A stretch of 32,000 bases of DNA from contig NZ_CP011391.1 of the NCBI RefSeq assembly GCF_001564455.1, positions 1-32,000 on the forward strand, read 5' to 3'. This DNA comes from Faecalibaculum rodentium. GTDB lineage: Bacteria; Bacillota_I; Bacilli_A; Erysipelotrichales; Erysipelotrichaceae. Below are positions 10,846 through 16,203 of the stretch, one piece after another; within the stretch, counting starts at the first letter, position 1, and each line of letters opens with the position of its first letter. The notes under the pieces are model-generated. The model was not told where the DNA came from, ran no database searches, and was given only the letters and a program-made list of their open reading frames with translations. The position numbers and the translations under genes were made by a program.

Positions 10846-10980
10846 GTGGAAATGATATATTGAATCTGCTGCTGCAATAGCATCTTATGAACCGGGTCAG
10901 ATAGGGAACTAAGCAGCCCTAAGTAATGCTCTGTTATGTGCGGCAGTTTTTTTATACCTTTTACAGCGGGAGGCATTCAG

Positions 10981-11529: not shown

Positions 11530-13260
11530 ATGGCCTACCAGGCATTATACAGAAAATATCGACCAGCGGTCTTCGAGGATATGGCAGGTCAGAAGCAGAT
11601 TGTCCGTACGATTCAGAACGCGATTCAGAACGACAGAATCTCACATGCATATCTGTTTTGCGGTCCCAGGGGAACTGGAAAAACATCCGCTGCCAAAATA
11701 TTTGCCAGAGCGCTCAACTGTACTTCCGATGGATTGAAGCCCTGCGGGCATTGTGAAAACTGTATGGCTGTCGATCATCCGGACATTGTGGAAATTGATG
11801 CTGCTTCCAACAATGGTGTGGAAGAAGCCAGAAATCTTGTTGAACGAGTAAAGTATGCCCCAATGATGGGTAAATACAAAATTTATATAATCGATGAAGT
11901 CCATATGATGACGGCAGGAGCGTTCAATGCTCTTCTAAAAACAATTGAAGAACCTCCGGCTCATGTCGTATTCATTCTCGCAACAACAGAACCTCATAAG
12001 GTATTGCCAACCATTCTGTCCAGATGTCAGAGATTCGACTTTAAAAAGGTCCCTCAGAATGAAATCCGTCAGAGGCTGCTGCAGATTGCAGAGAAGGAAG
12101 GAACAGTACTGGATCAGCAAGCTGCTGAACAGATTTCCCTGCTTTCTGATGGAGGGATGAGAGATGCATTATCTATTCTGGATCAGTGTATTGCATACGA
12201 GCCTGAGCATTTAACAGCTGAAGATATACGAGCTGTGTATGGCGTTGTTTCAGATGCTGACATCAGCGATATTTTCGGCTTATTGCAGCGCGGCCAGGCT
12301 GATCAGCTTATAAATGCCATCAAGACCCTGTATGACAACGGAATGGATCTCGAACGGTTCACTGCTGACCTGATCACACTGGTAAAGGATAGCCTGATTT
12401 ATTCCTGCTCTTCTGAAACTACACTTTTGTCAGAGGAAAGAAAACATTTGCTGCAGGCGTCATTCTCAAAAGCATCCATAGAATTCAGAACCCGTTTCCT
12501 GAAAGAACTCATGGATGTATATCCAAAATATTCCCATGCATCCAGCGTCCTGGATTATCTGGAGGCTGTCCTTCTGAAGTACGTACAACATGAAACAATC
12601 AATTCTGAATATGATTCATCAGTTCCCGTTCAGATACCTGTCAGAAATTTATCGGAAAATATCGGTGAATCAGATTCCAAAACGGCTGGAAGTGTAAATA
12701 AACCTGTCACTGAGAAGCAGAATGTGAAATCAGAATCTGATGTTTCACGTGAAACATCTCTGAAGAAGAAAGCGACACCTGATCCACTCGAAACACCAGA
12801 GTATACGAATGACCAGATTGTCGGTCTTCTTCATACAGCTGATAAATCTTTACGCGAAAAGGATATGTCAGCATGGAAAACCCGTATGACATTCAGTGGC
12901 TCTCTGCAGTCAGGAAAATATGCGAGAGCAGTTGCCAATGCGAAGCTTGCAGCTTCTGGCAGTAACTATATAATCGTATATACTTCAAAACAGATGGAGT
13001 CAGACGCGATCAATGATCTCCAGAAAGCTGAAGGCTTTGAAGATTTCATGGAACTGCTCACAGGGACAAGGAAAGCCGTGATTGCAGTGTCAGCATCCAG
13101 ATATAAAGAAGTACTGGATACATTCAGGGCATGTATGAAATCAGGAACATTCCCTGCAGCCCCGGCCATTCAAACATGTGAAGTAGATGTTGGTCATATG
13201 AAATCTACAGAGGAGGAACTTCGGGTGATGTTTCCAAATCTGAAAATCATAAATGACTGA
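11530..13260 (+). CDS. dnaX: DNA polymerase III subunits gamma/tau
   Basis: The second ATG (11530) is 6 nt after AAGGAGG; the track start 11524 abuts the SD. Walker A GPRGTGKTS, zinc module CGHCENC, DEVHMM, SRC motif (ILSRCQRF). Confidence 0.95.
   Translation: MAYQALYRKYRPAVFEDMAGQKQIVRTIQNAIQNDRISHAYLFCGPRGTGKTSAAKIFARALNCTSDGLKPCGHCENCMAVDHPDIVEIDAASNNGVEEARNLVERVKYAPMMGKYKIYIIDEVHMMTAGAFNALLKTIEEPPAHVVFILATTEPHKVLPTILSRCQRFDFKKVPQNEIRQRLLQIAEKEGTVLDQQAAEQISLLSDGGMRDALSILDQCIAYEPEHLTAEDIRAVYGVVSDADISDIFGLLQRGQADQLINAIKTLYDNGMDLERFTADLITLVKDSLIYSCSSETTLLSEERKHLLQASFSKASIEFRTRFLKELMDVYPKYSHASSVLDYLEAVLLKYVQHETINSEYDSSVPVQIPVRNLSENIGESDSKTAGSVNKPVTEKQNVKSESDVSRETSLKKKATPDPLETPEYTNDQIVGLLHTADKSLREKDMSAWKTRMTFSGSLQSGKYARAVANAKLAASGSNYIIVYTSKQMESDAINDLQKAEGFEDFMELLTGTRKAVIAVSASRYKEVLDTFRACMKSGTFPAAPAIQTCEVDVGHMKSTEEELRVMFPNLKIIND
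12741..12756. promoter_or_regulatory. parS: parS (ParB/Spo0J binding site), perfect consensus
   Basis: TGTTTCACGTGAAACA at 12741-12756 matches the Bacillus-type parS consensus TGTTNCACGTGAAACA at every position. With flanks it forms a 20-bp perfect palindrome GATGTTTCACGTGAAACATC. It lies in-frame in the dnaX linker region (codons DVSRETS). Confidence 0.85.
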
Positions 13261-13271
13261 AAGGAGTAACT

Positions 13272-13865
13272 ATGTATCCTGCCAAATTCGAAAATCTGAT
13301 TGCCGCATTCAGAAGGCTTCCAGGTGTTGGGATGAAAACAGCAGAGCGGTACGCTTTTGAAGCTCTGAATTGGGATGAGGAAACAAGAAAAGAAGTAGAG
13401 AGGAGTCTGCAACAAATATCTGAAATTCATACATGTCGTATTTGTGGAAATCTCTGTGATGAAGATGAATGTGAGTACTGCAAAGATCCAAACCGAACGG
13501 ACCATTTGATCTGCATTGTGCAGTCACCAAAAGATCTTCAGGCCCTTGAGTCAGCCGGGGTCTTCAATGGAAAATATCATGTATTAAATGGAACCATAAA
13601 TATGGCTAAGGGAGTCCTGCCGTCAGATTTAAACATAGATACACTGATTCAACGTATCAATGAAAATATAGATGAGGTGATTCTGGCCACTGAACCCACC
13701 GTTGATGGAGAAACAACGGCATTGTATTTGACAAAACTGCTGCAGGGAAAAGTGAAAGTCACACGATTAGCGAACGGTATTCCTATGGGAGGCCATTTGG
13801 ATTATTCCGATGCAAGAACTCTTCAAAGAGCATTTCAAGGTAGAACCAATGCTCAAAGTGAATAG
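13272..13865 (+). CDS. recR: Recombination protein RecR
   Basis: 197 aa. N-terminal HhH (FRRLPGVGMKTAERYAF), C4 zinc finger (CRICGNLCDEDECEYC), Toprim region. Directly follows dnaX. Confidence 0.95.
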   Translation: MYPAKFENLIAAFRRLPGVGMKTAERYAFEALNWDEETRKEVERSLQQISEIHTCRICGNLCDEDECEYCKDPNRTDHLICIVQSPKDLQALESAGVFNGKYHVLNGTINMAKGVLPSDLNIDTLIQRINENIDEVILATEPTVDGETTALYLTKLLQGKVKVTRLANGIPMGGHLDYSDARTLQRAFQGRTNAQSE

Positions 13866-13875
13866 AAGCAAAAAG

Positions 13876-13904
13876 AGGAGAGCTCATCTGGAACTCTCCT
13901 TTTT
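13876..13904 (+). terminator. Intrinsic terminator after recR
   Basis: AGGAGAGCTC/GAACTCTCCT stem (10 bp, one mismatch), loop ATCTG, followed by TTTT (13901-13904). Confidence 0.75.
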
Positions 13905-14999
13905 CATATGGGCGGATATTATAAAATGGCATACTTTCTGATGAATCATAAGAATAATATATGAGCTTGAGAAAAGACGTCTTTTGATAGTTCTACAGTT
14001 TTACAGCCTTACGGCACCATTAATGGGAGAAAACCTAAGCTACAGAGATGGATTTCAGACTGTTGTTTTATCCTATTATTGTCATAAGAGTAATCACATT
14101 ACATAATCCAAAGAGATATATAAATCATATGAAATGATGGTACCATGAAAAAAGAACGTTATTTTCATATGAATAATTCCTTTAAAGAGTGACCAGACGG
14201 CATAAGAGGCAATCAAGTATAAGCAAATTCGTAAGAATTGTCAGACAGGTATTCTTTCATCTGAAAACAATATGAGTGGAATATGAAACACTCATTATTG
14301 CCTCAGTAAAATCAAATCAGAATAAGACAACGAAACTCACTGAAATATAGGTGTTGTCTTAGATATGAATAGAATATGAAAAGATGCAGCAATAAGACAT
14401 TACACTGTATGATTTATCCTGCAGTATTTGCCAAAATCTTACCAATCATATGAATAAAGTAGGACAGTAAGAAAACTTGACCTGACAGCATTCTGATTCA
14501 ATAGATACCCCTAGATTGAAAAGTTAGATGAATACACTTACAGCAACATTAGTCGGTTTTTTACGAATTAAAATATATGACAAGAATATGAAAATGATGA
14601 ATTCCTAAAATCTAATATGAACAGTGAATATGAATCATATGACATGATGGGAATATTCAGATTCAGATTGCTGTAGATTAGCCCGATCACCATGAATGCT
14701 TCTTTAATATGACTATCGAAGCTGGAAATGGATCCCCAACATACAATTCGTTTATATATGTATGATTTTCTCGATAGTAATCATATGACTTCTGTGGTAT
14801 AGCAGTATTAGTATCTATAGAACTGGACATGAAAGTCATATCTATGAGTCTCCGGTAACAGACAAAAACAAGGGAAAATTCTGAAAATTCTTTGTTCATA
14901 TGATTGCGGATTCCATATGTAGAGATATTCATATAATGTATCTGAATTGCAGAGAATATCGGGCTAAGGCATAATACTCAACTGTCAAGTATCATATGA
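13904..14999 (+). repeat. Dispersed iteron-like array of ATATGA / TCATATGA motifs in ORF-free AT-rich DNA
   Basis: There are 17 plus-strand ATATGA copies. Seven are the palindrome TCATATGA (14125, 14165, 14446, 14635, 14781, 14896, 14992). Three doublets share exact 11-bp phasing (14270/14281, 14363/14374, 14575/14586). A longer variant ATCATATGA[A/C]ATGATGG occurs at 14124 and 14634. Confidence 0.8.
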
Positions 15000-15024
15000 A
15001 ATCATAGAATGTCCGGAAGAGCTA

Positions 15025-15033
15025 TGATATAAT
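15025..15033 (+). promoter_or_regulatory. Extended -10 promoter (TGaTATAAT) for the HTH/coiled-coil gene
   Basis: TGATATAAT at 15025-15033, ~55 nt upstream of the ORF. The last TCATATGA copy (14992-14999) lies just upstream of the expected -35 position. Confidence 0.55.
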
Positions 15034-15088
15034 GCCACCGCAATCCTAAGAAATACGTAAGATGCTGTGATGAAAGGAAGTGATTGGT

Positions 15089-15637
15089 TTGACGGATTCA
15101 GATAAAACGATAGATGTTTTTTATGATATGGACATTGCCCAGATCTGCCAGCACTTCAACAAATCACGGAATACAGTGGATAAAGCAATCGCGAAACTGG
15201 TAAAGGACAATCCTGACAAGGACTGGAAATATAAAAATCCTGAAACCAGACGGATCACCATAAAAGCAGAAGGAGTTGAACGCCTGAGTACATATTTTCG
15301 GAAAGAGAAACATGAAGTCTCTGCAGTGGAAATGGAACTCAGATATGAAAATGAAAAACTCAAAGCTATCATAGATGAAAAAGAGAAAGCATTTTCCCAG
15401 ATAGAAACGCTGTACAATCAAAGACTTCTTCTGGAGCTTGAAAACTCCAAGAAAACATATCTGCTTGAAACTCAGACAAAAGATGAAAAAATATCTGAAC
15501 TGGAGTCTGAGAATCAAAAATTGAAAACACAGTTATCGGATACAGAATCCATTTCTTCGAAATATGAAGAACTAAAAAAAAAGGAAGAAGAGTACAACTC
15601 AAAATCCTTTATTTATCGATTGCTCCACAAGTTTTAG
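15089..15637 (+). CDS. Small HTH plus coiled-coil DNA-binding protein (function unknown; RacA-like or plasmid replication-associated-like architecture)
   Basis: The ORF track gives 15080..15637 with a GTG start. TTG 15089 is better spaced from AAAGGAAG (15073-15080), and ATG 15128 is also possible. N-terminal HTH-like segment DIAQICQHFNKSRNTVDKAIAKL, ~90 aa of E/K/L/Q heptad-rich sequence, short hydrophobic C-terminus SFIYRLLHKF. Confidence 0.7.
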   Translation: MTDSDKTIDVFYDMDIAQICQHFNKSRNTVDKAIAKLVKDNPDKDWKYKNPETRRITIKAEGVERLSTYFRKEKHEVSAVEMELRYENEKLKAIIDEKEKAFSQIETLYNQRLLLELENSKKTYLLETQTKDEKISELESENQKLKTQLSDTESISSKYEELKKKEEEYNSKSFIYRLLHKF

Positions 15638-16203
15638 ACATCAGCATATGAAACTGCCCTTGCCAGCTTGGACGGGGCATTTTTTGTATATTCCAATCCG
15701 ATCTTAGAGAGTATTCTGTTGAATTTCTCAATCCCGTCATGGCTTTCTGTATATTCATATTCAATTTCATAATCCAAATAGTTTCTGTGAATTCCAAATG
15801 CCGTTTCGTCCAGACATAACTCTGCTGACGGGAGATGTAATACGTACCGTTTGGTTTGTGATACAGCAAAGGGCTTCACGGTAAGCGGTATACCATATTG
15901 TTTCAGCCAGCCGAGAATTTCAGGGTCCTGAATATTACGGATGGAATCAACTGGTATCTTCTTTTCCAGTTCAGTCTGTGTAATGGAGTCCCTTCGGATT
16001 TTCAACGTAAATATATGCTGCTCACCAATCGTACGAATGCGCAATGCCCCCAGTTTTCTTACAGATCCCTGATCATCATCAAAATATACATTGGTCTGCA
16101 GAACTGGTTTTCCAAAGTCATATGAATGGAGTATCTGGCAGAACTGCTCTTTGTTTACGAGAATTTTCAGTTCCCGTTCGATTTGATCATACATATTCAT
16201 CAC
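15634..16203 (-). CDS. CYTH-domain protein (triphosphate tunnel metalloenzyme, YjbK-like)
   Basis: N-terminal ExExK signature (IERELKIL) and CYTH-like beta-strand pattern (LRIRTIGEQHIFTLKIR...LDYEIEYEY). The start may be the fourth codon (ATG 16194, 9 nt from AGGTG). Association of CYTH with NAD kinase is also seen in B. subtilis yjbK...ppnKA. Confidence 0.85.
   Translation of the reverse strand: MMNMYDQIERELKILVNKEQFCQILHSYDFGKPVLQTNVYFDDDQGSVRKLGALRIRTIGEQHIFTLKIRRDSITQTELEKKIPVDSIRNIQDPEILGWLKQYGIPLTVKPFAVSQTKRYVLHLPSAELCLDETAFGIHRNYLDYEIEYEYTESHDGIEKFNRILSKIGLEYTKNAPSKLARAVSYADV

Follow-up and report, generated by a model that had tools for sequence, protein, structure and literature searches.

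In Faecalibaculum rodentium, the gene that lies between recR and the CYTH gene encodes a small protein with a predicted winged helix-turn-helix (wHTH), a long coiled coil and a cationic amphipathic tail, and it stands directly downstream of a dense array of ATATGA-type sites. We suggest, with a probability of roughly 0.55, that this gene is a divergent chromosomal member of the group formed by RocS, pSK1 Par, RicO and RacA, and that its product tethers origin-near DNA to the membrane via the array. DNA binding, membrane binding and a role in segregation are what we infer for the protein. The window is the whole stretch of DNA analysed, 32,000 nucleotides of the chromosome of this mouse-gut bacterium beginning at dnaA.

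Architecture and relatives of the protein

The open reading frame, and the segments quoted for it in a preliminary description of this DNA (DIAQICQHFNKSRNTVDKAIAKL, an E/K/L/Q-rich stretch and the tail SFIYRLLHKF), are all found in 15080-15637 (Table 1). Its true start is probably TTG 15089, the position at which homologues begin and from which the length, 182 aa, equals that of near-identical proteins in databases. The combination of an HTH with a coiled coil, proposed earlier from the sequence, is reproduced by AlphaFold2, whose model of the protein (pLDDT 83.6) joins a small winged HTH to a single helix of ~120 residues. The modelled wHTH runs in order through a short strand, helix 19-26, recognition helix 30-43, a beta-hairpin wing (50-61) and helix 63-77, and a domain-only model gave a beta-alpha-alpha-hairpin-alpha arrangement, which is the MerR-type topology. 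In the monomer model the continuous helix covers residues 63-184, is heptad-rich and has pLDDT >90 over most of its length. In the family alignment this helix includes a conserved LY..RL.LELEK..QTFLLE block and a central part whose length varies, and residues ~12-100 are near-invariant between genera.

The preliminary description had called the tail short and hydrophobic, but it is cationic (net charge +3) and amphipathic, with a hydrophobic moment of 0.44-0.50 and an amphipathicity at least equal to that of RocS, Par or MinD. The conserved family tail, EEYNSKSFFYRLTHKF, can be set against TKKGFFARLFGGK in RocS (PMC13042908) and TKKGFWSRLFGG in Par. Its core reads K-S-F-F/I-Y-R-L here, K-G-F-F-A-R-L in RocS and K-G-F-W-S-R-L in Par; at the sequence level KSFFYRL fits the RocS/Par/MinD membrane-targeting motif KGFFxRL, with Ser replacing the Gly of the RocS 'kink' (KS vs KG). 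Chromosomal and plasmid relatives alike conserve the tail, which is a candidate amphipathic membrane-targeting sequence of the RocS/MinD/Par type.

Structure comparison of the predicted DNA-binding domain with Foldseek returned chains of RacA-DNA complexes as the best PDB matches (probability 0.96-0.99, TM 0.57-0.68), with the pSK1 Par domain also among the matches and with E-values of only ~0.1. The RacA-like architecture named in the preliminary description thus has a structural counterpart. Sequence searches of the PDB, run with the protein alone or with profiles of the family, matched neither RacA nor Par, and searches of Pfam, NCBIfam, PHROGs and PDB sequences gave solely sub-threshold HTH or coiled-coil noise. 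A further word-indexed protein search with the broad alignment brought back close homologues and nothing new. The weak Pfam matches were to generic HTH families (HTH_36 and Sigma70_r4_2, and MarR_2 in plasmid relatives), while NCBIfam produced a full-length but non-significant alignment to a 'plasmid replication DNA-binding protein' (E=1.1). A phage structural or scaffolding protein, which the earlier description had named as a refuting case, was considered and rejected: PHROGs yielded coiled-coil noise only (E>=7e-4), with no matched stretch passing alone for the window protein.

Profile comparison with hhalign linked the family to an alignment of RocS and Par with a probability of 96.3% over 94 columns, and the domain only with 91.5% (score 34, against <=14 for reversed and shuffled controls), in a single pairwise test of shallow profiles (Neff 3-4) where an HTH-to-HTH match is little family-specific. 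The RocS sequences used came from metagenomes, which were scanned with a degenerate DNA pattern. The signal appeared only against the RocS/Par alignment: hhalign found no match between the family and the lone pSK1 Par sequence, and single-sequence comparisons of the window protein with pSK1 Par were not significant. The halves of the coiled coil aligned with a probability of 18%, leaving the DUF536 region uncovered, and BLASTP gave a local resemblance only (LELENSKKTYLLETQ vs LALESNKKIQKLEHQ, E=0.005). None of 28 family members matched DUF536 (PF04394) at E<=1, whereas pSK1 Par itself matches at 27 bits.

Distant relatives with a like three-part layout are encoded on small plasmids, one a Rep_3+Mob_Pre plasmid of ~3.8 kb and others Mob plasmids of 5-6 kb. 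GGTTAA repeats precede the gene of the Rep_3-plasmid relative; no clear array was seen upstream of the gene on the Mob plasmids (L051), and tblastn of one plasmid relative against PLSDB gave no match. Of the earlier assignment to plasmid-partition or DUF536-type proteins, the first part finds support in the RocS/Par profile link and in the relatives on Rep_3 theta and Mob plasmids, whereas the DUF536 motif is undetectable.

A phased site array at a conserved locus

The wHTH/coiled-coil gene belongs to the core set of at least 10 genera of Erysipelotrichaceae, and the order dnaX-recR-spacer-gene-CYTH-nadK-ftsW-mutS is common to 49/49 loci. At 55-90% identity, its protein outdoes those of its housekeeping neighbours (~46% for DnaX and 50-60% for RecR, CYTH and NadK). 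It is a vertically inherited core gene and not a recent orphan plasmid module, one of the two origins entertained for it earlier.

That homologues neighbour ATATGA arrays, a prediction of the preliminary description, was found for most of the 48 related loci whose spacer could be measured: ATATGA density is 10-41 per kb in most spacers vs 1-5 per kb in the flanks, ATATGA/TTCATATGAA sites reach ~10x the local background, and ATATGA is the top k-mer over all spacers. Sites are few in one subclade (L034-L036). Because synteny is frozen across the clade, the co-occurrence of gene and array represents one phylogenetic event and is therefore weaker than 48 independent observations. For the Allobaculum-like subclade, a comparison of helix and motif co-variation was uninformative, since the recognition helix is unchanged there. 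Between two species of Faecalibaculum, the spacers can be aligned over only 55 bp, a stretch that coincides with the predicted promoter region, yet 18-27 sites are kept in both.

Table 1. Positions of the gene, its upstream sites and associated elements in the window
Feature	Position	Strand	Basis or remark
Remaining TCATATGA copies outside spacer	7360 and 8331 (gyrA); 16118 (CYTH); 16900 (nadK); 22512 (mutL)		
Outlying TCATATGA within dnaX 3' end	13194..13201	.	1 of 6 copies outside spacer
GC-rich hairpin with T-runs on both strands, right after recR	13876..13900	.	likely bidirectional terminator
ATATGA-type array, recR-to-gene spacer	13904..14999	.	20 distinct sites: 7 full palindromes TCATATGA and 13 half-sites
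Two palindromic sites, 40 bp apart	14125-14132 and 14165-14172	.	motif scan
Direct doublet ATATGA-N5-ATATGA, 11-bp spacing	14270..14286	+	motif scan
Further ATATGA-N5-ATATGA doublets	14363-14379; 14575-14591		motif scan
Palindromic site TCATATGA	14446..14453	.	motif scan
Triplet	14615..14642	.	ATATGA at 14615 and 14628, palindrome TCATATGA at 14635-14642
Other TCATATGA palindromes	14781-14788; 14896-14903		motif scan
Promoter-proximal palindrome TCATATGA	14992..14999	.	25 bp upstream of extended -10; candidate operator
Predicted promoter	15005..15033	+	weak -35 TAGAAT 15005-15010, 14-bp gap, TG 15025-15026, TATAAT 15028-15033
Ribosome-binding site AAAGGAAG and candidate starts GTG 15080, TTG 15089	15071..15091	+	TTG 15089 favoured
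wHTH / coiled-coil / amphipathic-tail CDS	15080..15637	+	185 aa from GTG, or 182 aa from TTG 15089
MerR-type winged HTH, N-terminal, residues 14-77	15119..15310	+	AlphaFold2 models, structure matches, profile alignment
Single long helix / coiled coil, residues 63-172	15266..15595	+	alignment and AlphaFold2 model
Cationic amphipathic tail NSKSFIYRLLHKF, residues 173-185	15596..15634	+	candidate membrane-targeting sequence

In the window, the 1214-bp spacer contains ATATGA 27 times, both strands taken together, vs 3.75 +/- 2.0 expected from 5000 first-order Markov simulations of the spacer, among which the maximum was 14; TCATATGA occurs 7 times vs 0.15 expected. The family consensus of the site is tTCATATGAAt, a TTCA-TA-TGAA arrangement whose half-sites stand close together for a classical HTH dimer. 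The centres of the sites follow a phase of ~10.25-10.5 bp (window alone: Rayleigh R=0.55, p=0.0005). Taken individually, the window and most of the genus representatives show significant phasing, and pair distances of sites in the family spacers peak at 11, 21-24, 31, 42, 52-53 and 63 bp. The '22-bp doublets' remarked on earlier correspond to ATATGA pairs 11 bp apart (14270/14281, 14363/14374 and 14575/14586). A genome-wide over-representation of TCATATGA was ruled out for the 42 kb of genome examined, in which all 13 copies fall between 7.3 and 22.5 kb and 0 in the remaining ~27 kb.

The preliminary description correctly placed the extended -10 element TGATATAAT (15025-15033) and the final TCATATGA copy (14992-14999). 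An extended -10 of the form TGnTATAAT is found in most relatives, 45-60 nt upstream of the start codon. A consensus promoter scan did not call the predicted promoter at 15005-15033 because it needs a better -35. Judged from its position in the sequence, the site at 14992-14999 is a candidate operator for autoregulation of the gene; relatives differ in the distance from site to -10, which makes this autoregulation uncertain. At the other end of the spacer, the hairpin at 13876-13900 is likely a bidirectional terminator that would shield the array from recR transcription. The spacer gave 0 Rfam matches at gathering thresholds and 0 tRNA, and no hidden small ORF within it was conserved, even in the congener.

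Comparison with known partition and tethering systems

The order of parts in the window protein is like that in pSK1 Par, the DUF536-annotated, single-protein partition factor of a Staphylococcus aureus plasmid, which consists of an N-terminal MerR-type wHTH, a coiled coil and a K-G-F-W-x-R-L-F tail (PMC11500499). Both loci have a repeat array upstream of the gene and both are without a partner NTPase gene: as the preliminary description had pointed out for Rep, ParA and recombinase genes, none of these is nearby, and the window contains no ParA/ParM/TubZ gene. The pSK1 par array, directly upstream of the gene, comprises at least 5 copies of TTTACYRCCTAA within 140 bp, whereas the window array is ~5x larger, with 20 palindrome-based sites over 1.1 kb at ~10.5 bp phasing. 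The two also differ in that pSK1 Par is plasmid-borne, while the window gene is a chromosomal, clade-wide core gene between recR and CYTH in 49 genomes. Moreover, pSK1 Par carries DUF536, none of which is detectable in the window family, and has an ~80-residue low-complexity region ahead of the tail that is missing from the window protein.

RocS and RicO, the closest functional precedents, were absent from the preliminary description. RocS of Streptococcus pneumoniae, with 163-164 aa vs 182 here, has a wHTH, a coiled coil and an amphipathic tail in equal order, and shares the tail core KxFFxRL with the window family. Its DNA-binding domain, oligomerisation and amphipathic helix are all required, as are three functionally essential glutamines in its DUF536 (PMC11500499), a domain that is undetectable in the window family. 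The streptococcal rocS genes that we recovered have short, ordinary upstream regions without repeats, in contrast to the array of the window gene. A preprint on RicO assigns Erysipelotrichia sequences, which it leaves unnamed, to the 'parallel dimer' clade of RocS (bioRxiv 10.64898/2026.03.06.710092).

RicO of Staphylococcus aureus combines a DNA-binding domain and a coiled coil with an amphipathic helix at its C terminus, a layout like that predicted for the window protein. It bridges origin-proximal sites to the membrane, domain and helix both being required, and RicO-type coiled coils are predicted as tetramers or trimers (bioRxiv 10.64898/2026.03.06.710092). The likeness is one of architecture and of origin-proximal sites by description, set against 42 kb of the F. 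rodentium genome. RicO has nine dispersed 18-bp ricS sites over ~700 kb, whereas the window has one dense, gene-adjacent array with a few outliers within ~8 kb.

RacA of Bacillus subtilis, the best structural match of the domain, unites such a domain with a coiled coil, origin-proximal sites and envelope anchoring, much as is proposed for the window protein; it binds origin-proximal centromere-like sites, anchors via DivIVA and acts in sporulation (PMC11500499). RacA is without an amphipathic tail, whereas the window protein has a predicted one. The ram sites of RacA, 14-bp inverted repeats rich in GC, are scattered across hundreds of kb, in contrast to the AT-rich, clustered TTCATATGAA sites of the window. 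A further point of comparison is the type II ParR/parC system, which also has a repeat array beside the binder's own gene. In R1 parC, short repeats at about one helical turn, within the promoter of the binder's operon, give rise to a cooperative nucleoprotein complex and to autoregulation. ParR is a ribbon-helix-helix protein that works with the ParM motor; the window has no NTPase gene, and the output proposed for its system would be membrane attachment.

Proposed origin tethering and alternative readings

Under the tethering reading, the MerR-type wHTH domains would bind the TTCATATGAA palindromes and ATATGAA half-sites and build a large nucleoprotein complex. The bound sites would lie on one DNA face, at ~10.5-bp phasing, across the ~1.1 kb directly upstream of the protein's own gene; co-occurrence, phasing and the pSK1 Par precedent all point to this binding step. 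The model and the example of RocS suggest that the long helix may bring about dimerisation or oligomerisation. Multivalent C-terminal amphipathic helices could fix the complex to the cytoplasmic membrane, as the K-[GS]-F-[FW]-x-R-L match and the characterised RocS tail would predict. By analogy with RocS and RicO, the oriC-proximal region, ~13 kb from the DnaA-box clusters, would be anchored or positioned in this way and would help origin organisation and segregation. The weakest step is the last, in which protein bound at the promoter-proximal site or sites would probably act back on the extended -10 promoter of its own gene.

More tentatively, the array may be a true chromosomal centromere, serving a partition system that has one protein and is independent of any NTPase. 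It would then be the chromosomal counterpart of pSK1 par, ~13 kb from oriC and clade-wide. The canonical jag-gidAB-noc-parAB block is missing beside oriC in the 42 kb of genome seen, and the system may therefore replace ParABS in origin segregation. If the centromere reading is true, the array would be the first defined, dense, cis-acting site for RocS-type tethers. Such proteins are the main segregation factors in bacteria where ParABS and SMC are dispensable. For the questions of how they choose their DNA and how directional segregation arises from a passive membrane tether, the locus is a natural system, kept in at least 10 genera despite spacer turnover, in which a protein, a sharp palindrome and a compact, helically phased array of ~20 sites stand together beside oriC. 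Short pieces of DNA would thus suffice for direct tests of binding, stoichiometry, membrane recruitment and centromere function, and the array could be transferred to other loci or plasmids. The family may also form an evolutionary bridge between plasmid single-protein partition, as in pSK1 Par and the Rep_3-plasmid relatives, and chromosomal tethers.

The protein could alternatively be an autoregulated transcription factor or nucleoid-associated protein that does no tethering, with the array as a titration 'sponge' and the tail as an element for interaction or stability. The generic HTH families among the weak Pfam matches (HTH_36, Sigma70_r4_2, MarR_2), the site adjoining the promoter and the occurrence of MerR-type domains mostly in regulators are in line with this. 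We nevertheless consider it unlikely: 20 helically phased sites over 1.1 kb far exceed operator needs, the tail fits an experimentally defined membrane-targeting motif and is kept in chromosomal and plasmid relatives, and the plasmid relatives occupy the position of a partition protein.

We also see little likelihood of a Noc-like role for the protein in nucleoid occlusion or at the division site, in which its DNA-membrane bridge would block or guide Z-ring assembly rather than segregate origins. The DNA-plus-membrane logic is common to B. subtilis Noc, and the first description of RocS gave it a part in nucleoid protection as well (bioRxiv 10.1101/359943). An ftsW/rodA-family gene lies 2 kb downstream of the window gene. 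Noc sites, however, spread over most of the chromosome, whereas those of F. rodentium form one local cluster near oriC in the 42 kb seen.

We consider it improbable that some other factor targets the array, or that it serves as a structural DNA element, for instance an AT-rich, curved insulator or a site for SMC loading or another organising function, with the gene linked to it only by frozen synteny. The single phylogenetic event behind the co-occurrence would allow for this, as would the recurrence of TCATATGA within neighbouring coding regions and the fact that we infer the binding of array by protein. But centromere binders of like build have their sites directly upstream (pSK1 Par, and GGTTAA for the Rep_3-plasmid relative), the domain is near-invariant over genera that have the motif in common, and a palindromic motif suits a dimeric wHTH.

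The spacer as oriC was also considered and rejected. The spacer (13866-15079) is AT-rich and contains no TTATCCACA-type box (<=1 mismatch) and no TTWTCCCC box, and neither gene orientation nor GC skew switches at it. All 13 of 13 TTWTCCCC boxes flank dnaA (1-1353) in a canonical bipartite oriC, 12.5-13.6 kb from the array, which is therefore not the origin. A remnant or second replication origin, or an integrated-replicon control region with ATATGA as iterons and the protein as a RepX-like replication factor, has hardly any probability: relatives do accompany Rep_3 initiators on theta plasmids, NCBIfam did offer its non-significant replication-protein alignment and the spacer is AT-rich, but it is free of DnaA boxes of either type, the window has no Rep gene, orientation and skew hold steady across the spacer, and the canonical oriC sits around dnaA.

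Synteny and the site array

The open reading frame proposed downstream of the array is real, and its translation contains the HTH-like segment, the stretch rich in E, K, L and Q, and the tail SFIYRLLHKF that the preliminary description had quoted; the extended -10 promoter TGATATAAT and the last full palindromic site, TCATATGA, also lie where it had placed them. Translation from the GTG gives 185 residues and from the TTG 182. The TTG lies 8-10 nt past the ribosome-binding site AAAGGAAG and is the probable start, because database proteins have 182 residues and homologues begin there. A 99%-identical database protein is labelled 'hypothetical protein [Faecalibaculum rodentium]'.

Window position 1 is the dnaA start codon, followed by dnaN, recF, gyrB, gyrA, serS, the SRP RNA, tadA, dnaX and recR, and then by the 1214-bp spacer, the window gene, a convergent CYTH gene, nadK, ftsW/rodA, mutS and mutL. 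With one genome scanned per species, 49 loci were recovered, all with the gene (a few MAG bins are plainly mislabelled), spanning Faecalibaculum, Dubosiella, Holdemanella, Faecalicoccus, Ileibacterium, Faecalitalea, Floccifex, Catenisphaera, Allobaculum, Absicoccus and other relatives. The order (serS-tadA-)dnaX-recR-spacer-gene-CYTH(-)-nadK-ftsW(-)-mutS was found in 49/49. Protein identity to the window copy was 55-90%, on a par with SerS, compared with about 46% for DnaX and 50-60% for RecR, CYTH and NadK. The gene belongs to the vertically inherited core and is strongly constrained, rather than being the orphan domesticated plasmid module suggested earlier; fixed synteny and this level of identity rule out a recently captured plasmid module.

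Features of the window and its left flank
Feature	Position	Remarks
DnaA boxes of the origin	1364-1434; L183 9614-9927	L183, F. rodentium contig across the window start
TCATATGA outside the spacer	7360, 8331 (gyrA), 13194 (dnaX), 16118 (CYTH), 16900 (nadK), 22512 (mutL)	
Bacterial small SRP RNA	10866-10952	Rfam RF00169, 58 bits; between serS and tadA
dnaX-recR gap	13260-13272	11 nt
GC-rich hairpin, T-runs on both sides	13876-13900	just after recR
ATATGA-type sites	13904-14999	spacer
Last TCATATGA before the gene	14992-14999	
Extended -10 promoter TGATATAAT	15025-15033	
Window gene	15080-15637 (+)	GTG 15080; TTG 15089
Region where window gene and convergent CYTH ORF meet	15634-15686	4 nt shared at the stop codons
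GC-rich hairpin, then T-run	about 15655-15686	within the 3'-terminal part of the CYTH ORF

Homologues were expected to adjoin ATATGA arrays, and most do. Counting both strands, the window spacer holds 27 ATATGA, where composition-matched simulations give 3.75 +/- 2.0 (maximum 14), and 7 copies of TCATATGA, where 0.15 are expected. Most of the 48 loci with a measurable spacer carry 10-41 ATATGA/kb there versus 1-5/kb in their own flanks, with enrichment throughout a range of genomic G+C of 29-50% and in spacers from 225 to 1455 bp long. That gene and array occur together across loci counts as a single phylogenetic event. In the pooled spacers ATATGA is the commonest hexamer and ATTCATATGA the commonest decamer, and the position-weight matrix reads tTC-ATATGA-At, the full site being a 10-12 bp palindrome, TTCATATGAA. 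Full palindromes make up ~30% of sites and half-sites the remainder. Distances between site centres peak at 11-12, 21-24, 31, 42, 52-53 and 63-64 bp, a ~10.5 bp period that places the sites on one helix face. The window by itself shows significant phasing (R=0.55, p=0.0005), and so, each independently (p<0.05), do representatives of Holdemanella, Ileibacterium, Faecalitalea, Catenisphaera, Allobaculum stercoricanis, Absicoccus and two further lineages. Between the two Faecalibaculum species, spacers are alignable for just 55 bp surrounding the promoter, and none of the small spacer ORFs of the window is conserved in the second species. Such retention of motif content and phase, but not of spacer sequence, is the signature of a putative protein-binding array. 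An extended -10, TGnTATAAT, lies 45-60 nt upstream of the start codon in most relatives; the distance to it from the last site varies, so autoregulation through the promoter-near site is only plausible.

Allobaculum-like spacers (L034, L035, L036, L040) are long (1.1-1.3 kb), hold few ATATGA and are enriched instead in ATCTGA/ATCAGAT, among them the palindrome ATCTGATCAGAT. The corresponding proteins have an unchanged recognition helix, and these motifs may represent a drifted or relaxed site.

The palindrome also occurs outside the spacer, six times in the window against a mean of 0.41 for 63 other composition-matched palindromes. A further 224 copies lie in flanks of the 48 loci, for which the comparison values are 16 on average and 67 at most. 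Flank copies are concentrated <2 kb from the spacer at recurrent positions, some of which coincide with conserved peptides (e.g., DnaX DEVHM). At the CYTH site, 40 loci encode S-Y-D/E, 33 of them with the codons TCA-TAT-GA, and the adjacent codons vary, which hints at constraint at the DNA level, with shared ancestry as an alternative. All 13/13 copies in F. rodentium fall between 7.3 and 22.5 kb, and the other approximately 27 kb (10 kb left of dnaA, 1-7.3 kb and 22.5-32 kb) contain none; the copies form a local cluster within the 42 kb examined.

Position relative to the origin

We considered whether the array might itself be oriC. The spacer gave no Rfam match at gathering thresholds, no tRNA and no DnaA box, either canonical (<=1 mismatch) or of the local TTWTCCCC variant. 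On contigs spanning the window start, rpmH-rnpA-yidC-jag lies left of dnaA on the other strand; of 13 TTWTCCCC boxes (2 expected), ten lie between rpmH and dnaA and three between dnaA and dnaN, with none elsewhere in 21 kb. These dnaA-flanking clusters are a standard bipartite Firmicute oriC. Neither gene orientation nor GC skew switches at 14-15 kb. We therefore rejected the array as oriC and regard it as an element of its own, lying 12.5-13.6 kb rightward of the origin.

The DnaA box of this origin is TTWTCCCC(A) rather than TTATCCACA. Over 10 kb to the left of dnaA in F. rodentium (L183 1-10000), jag is followed by pth, mfd and genes for S4, NUDIX and HD proteins and argS; the mnmE/gidA/gidB/noc/parA/parB block that Firmicutes usually have after jag is missing from this interval. 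The gene for the nucleoid-associated protein YbaB/EbfC, which usually sits between dnaX and recR in Firmicutes, is absent from that position.

Fold and relatives of the window protein

Sequence searches of Pfam, NCBIfam, PHROGs and the PDB returned only sub-threshold HTH matches (HTH_36, Sigma70_r4_2) and coiled-coil noise, placing the window protein outside every curated family searched. Two homologues (P0101, P0107) carry a precomputed match to PF28219, which may be a recent family covering it. An AlphaFold2 model built from a 19-sequence alignment (mean pLDDT 83.6) has a small N-terminal domain followed by a single unbroken helix (residues 63-184). When only the N-terminal 80 residues are modelled, they form a short strand, helices at 19-26 and 30-43, a beta-hairpin wing (50-61) and a helix at 63-77, a predicted MerR/excisionase-type winged HTH. 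The proposed layout of HTH plus coiled coil is thus reproduced in the model, and the suggested RacA-like or plasmid-partition-like architecture is in keeping with structural matches to it. Chains of the RacA-DNA complex 5i44 were the best PDB matches from either model (Foldseek probability 0.96-0.99; TM 0.57-0.68 normalised to either chain), with E-values of only about 0.1, followed by the MerR-like GlnR, CarH, CadR, BldC and excisionases; the pSK1 Par DNA-binding domain (8csh) was also among the matches. In the alignment, residues 12-100 or so are almost invariant between genera, the mid-helix varies in length (proteins of 182-250 aa) around a conserved block, LY..RL.LELEK..QTFLLE, and the C-terminal 16 residues, EEYNSKSFFYRLTHKF, are again conserved.

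A word-indexed search found 196 proteins, all from Erysipelotrichaceae wherever the source organism was named. When 1.84 billion cluster representatives were searched exhaustively with a profile, just 40 matched, comprising fragments, close relatives and about 20 full-length proteins of 140-221 aa; the latter are 24-35% identical to the window protein, keep its three-part layout and were found solely on short metagenomic contigs. One is encoded on 5.3-6.4 kb contigs that are mutual circular permutations with a Mob_Pre relaxase, and another (P0169, L057) on a tandemly assembled ~3.8 kb unit with a Rep_3 initiator, three small ORFs and a Mob_Pre relaxase, so the wider family is plasmid-borne. 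The precedent cited earlier, of small HTH/coiled-coil proteins on Gram-positive theta plasmids, fits these relatives. Four to five GGTTAA/TTAACC repeats in the 120 bp upstream of P0169 (L057 1840-1960) may be its own small site array. On the Mob plasmid carrying P0136, the relaxase gene is preceded by a perfect 15-nt inverted repeat (ATATGAATATTATAC/GTATAATATTCATAT; L051 1999-2051) that contains the ATATGAAT motif and may reflect chance or oriT.

RocS and lactococcal-type plasmid homologues were recovered by a degenerate DNA scan for KKGFFARLFGGK and aligned with Par from pSK1 and pN315 (seven sequences). Against this alignment the window family profile scored an hhalign probability of 96.3% over 94 columns. 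The DNA-binding domains alone gave 91.5% over 29 HTH columns and a score of 34, far above the controls (10 for a reversed template, at most 14 for 30 column-shuffled templates), and the window domain is on this basis probably homologous to that of RocS/Par. The coiled-coil halves did not match (probability 18%), and the structural and profile statistics are suggestive of these family links, not decisive. Overall architecture and tail match those of RocS and Par, but 0/28 window-family members match Pfam DUF536, a 43-position model on which pSK1 Par itself scores only 27 bits. Given this result and its chromosomal location, we did not file the protein as a DUF536/Par member in the Pfam sense, but as a divergent branch of the RocS/RicO/Par superfamily. 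The class is already known, and a March 2026 preprint unites RicO, RacA and RocS in one Firmicute family and mentions Erysipelotrichia relatives in passing, within the RocS 'parallel-dimer' clade (bioRxiv 10.64898/2026.03.06.710092).

DUF536-type proteins of 154-159 aa ending in KKGFFARLFGGKL (L173, L146) directly follow a RepB-like gene, so called by eye from a C-terminal peptide only, for its resemblance to lactococcal theta-plasmid RepB. If that resemblance is right, they are the RepX/OrfX-type proteins referred to in the preliminary description.

The C-terminal tail and a possible role

For S. pneumoniae RocS, experiments have characterised AKEEVQATKKGFFARLFGGK as the membrane-targeting sequence (PMC13042908). 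pSK1 Par ends in TKKGFWSRLFGG, the window family in SKSFFYRLTHKF and the plasmid relatives in RGFWDRLFNKGGK, NKSLFQRLFKK or RGLWARILNKPE; all share the core K/R-[GS]-[FL]-[FW]-x-R-[LI]. RocS has a kink-forming Gly where the window protein has Ser. Treated as a helix, the tail of the window protein reaches a hydrophobic moment of 0.50 (RocS 0.20, Par 0.35 and MinD 0.39 on the same scale) and carries a net charge of +3. The short tail described earlier is present, but rather than simply hydrophobic it is best read, from the shared core, moment and charge, as a predicted amphipathic membrane anchor of the MinD/RocS type.

We propose, by analogy, that the window protein acts as RocS and RicO do, with a gene arrangement like that of pSK1 par. 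A dimer or oligomer formed through the coiled coil would set its MerR-type winged HTH domains on phased palindromes and half-sites, and the resulting multivalent complex would present many amphipathic tails, dock at the membrane and so anchor origin-proximal DNA. In RocS, one amphipathic helix is insufficient and membrane binding needs oligomerisation (PMC11500499); a 20-site array would supply local multivalency of this kind. RicO, a Firmicute protein of like architecture, links DNA sites near the origin to the membrane, and segregation requires both of its ends (bioRxiv 10.64898/2026.03.06.710092). The pSK1 par locus resembles the window locus in having a gene-adjacent array and no NTPase. 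No such array accompanies streptococcal rocS genes. What is new is a dense, phased, palindromic array, adjacent to the gene and near oriC, kept across at least 10 genera, together with plasmid-borne sister proteins that tie plasmid partition to chromosomal tethers.

The scan for the RocS tail also matched membrane proteins of ~1240 aa with an internal KKKGFFASLFGGKK segment (at L071, L162 and about 40 more metagenome loci), in which the MinD-like motif is non-terminal.
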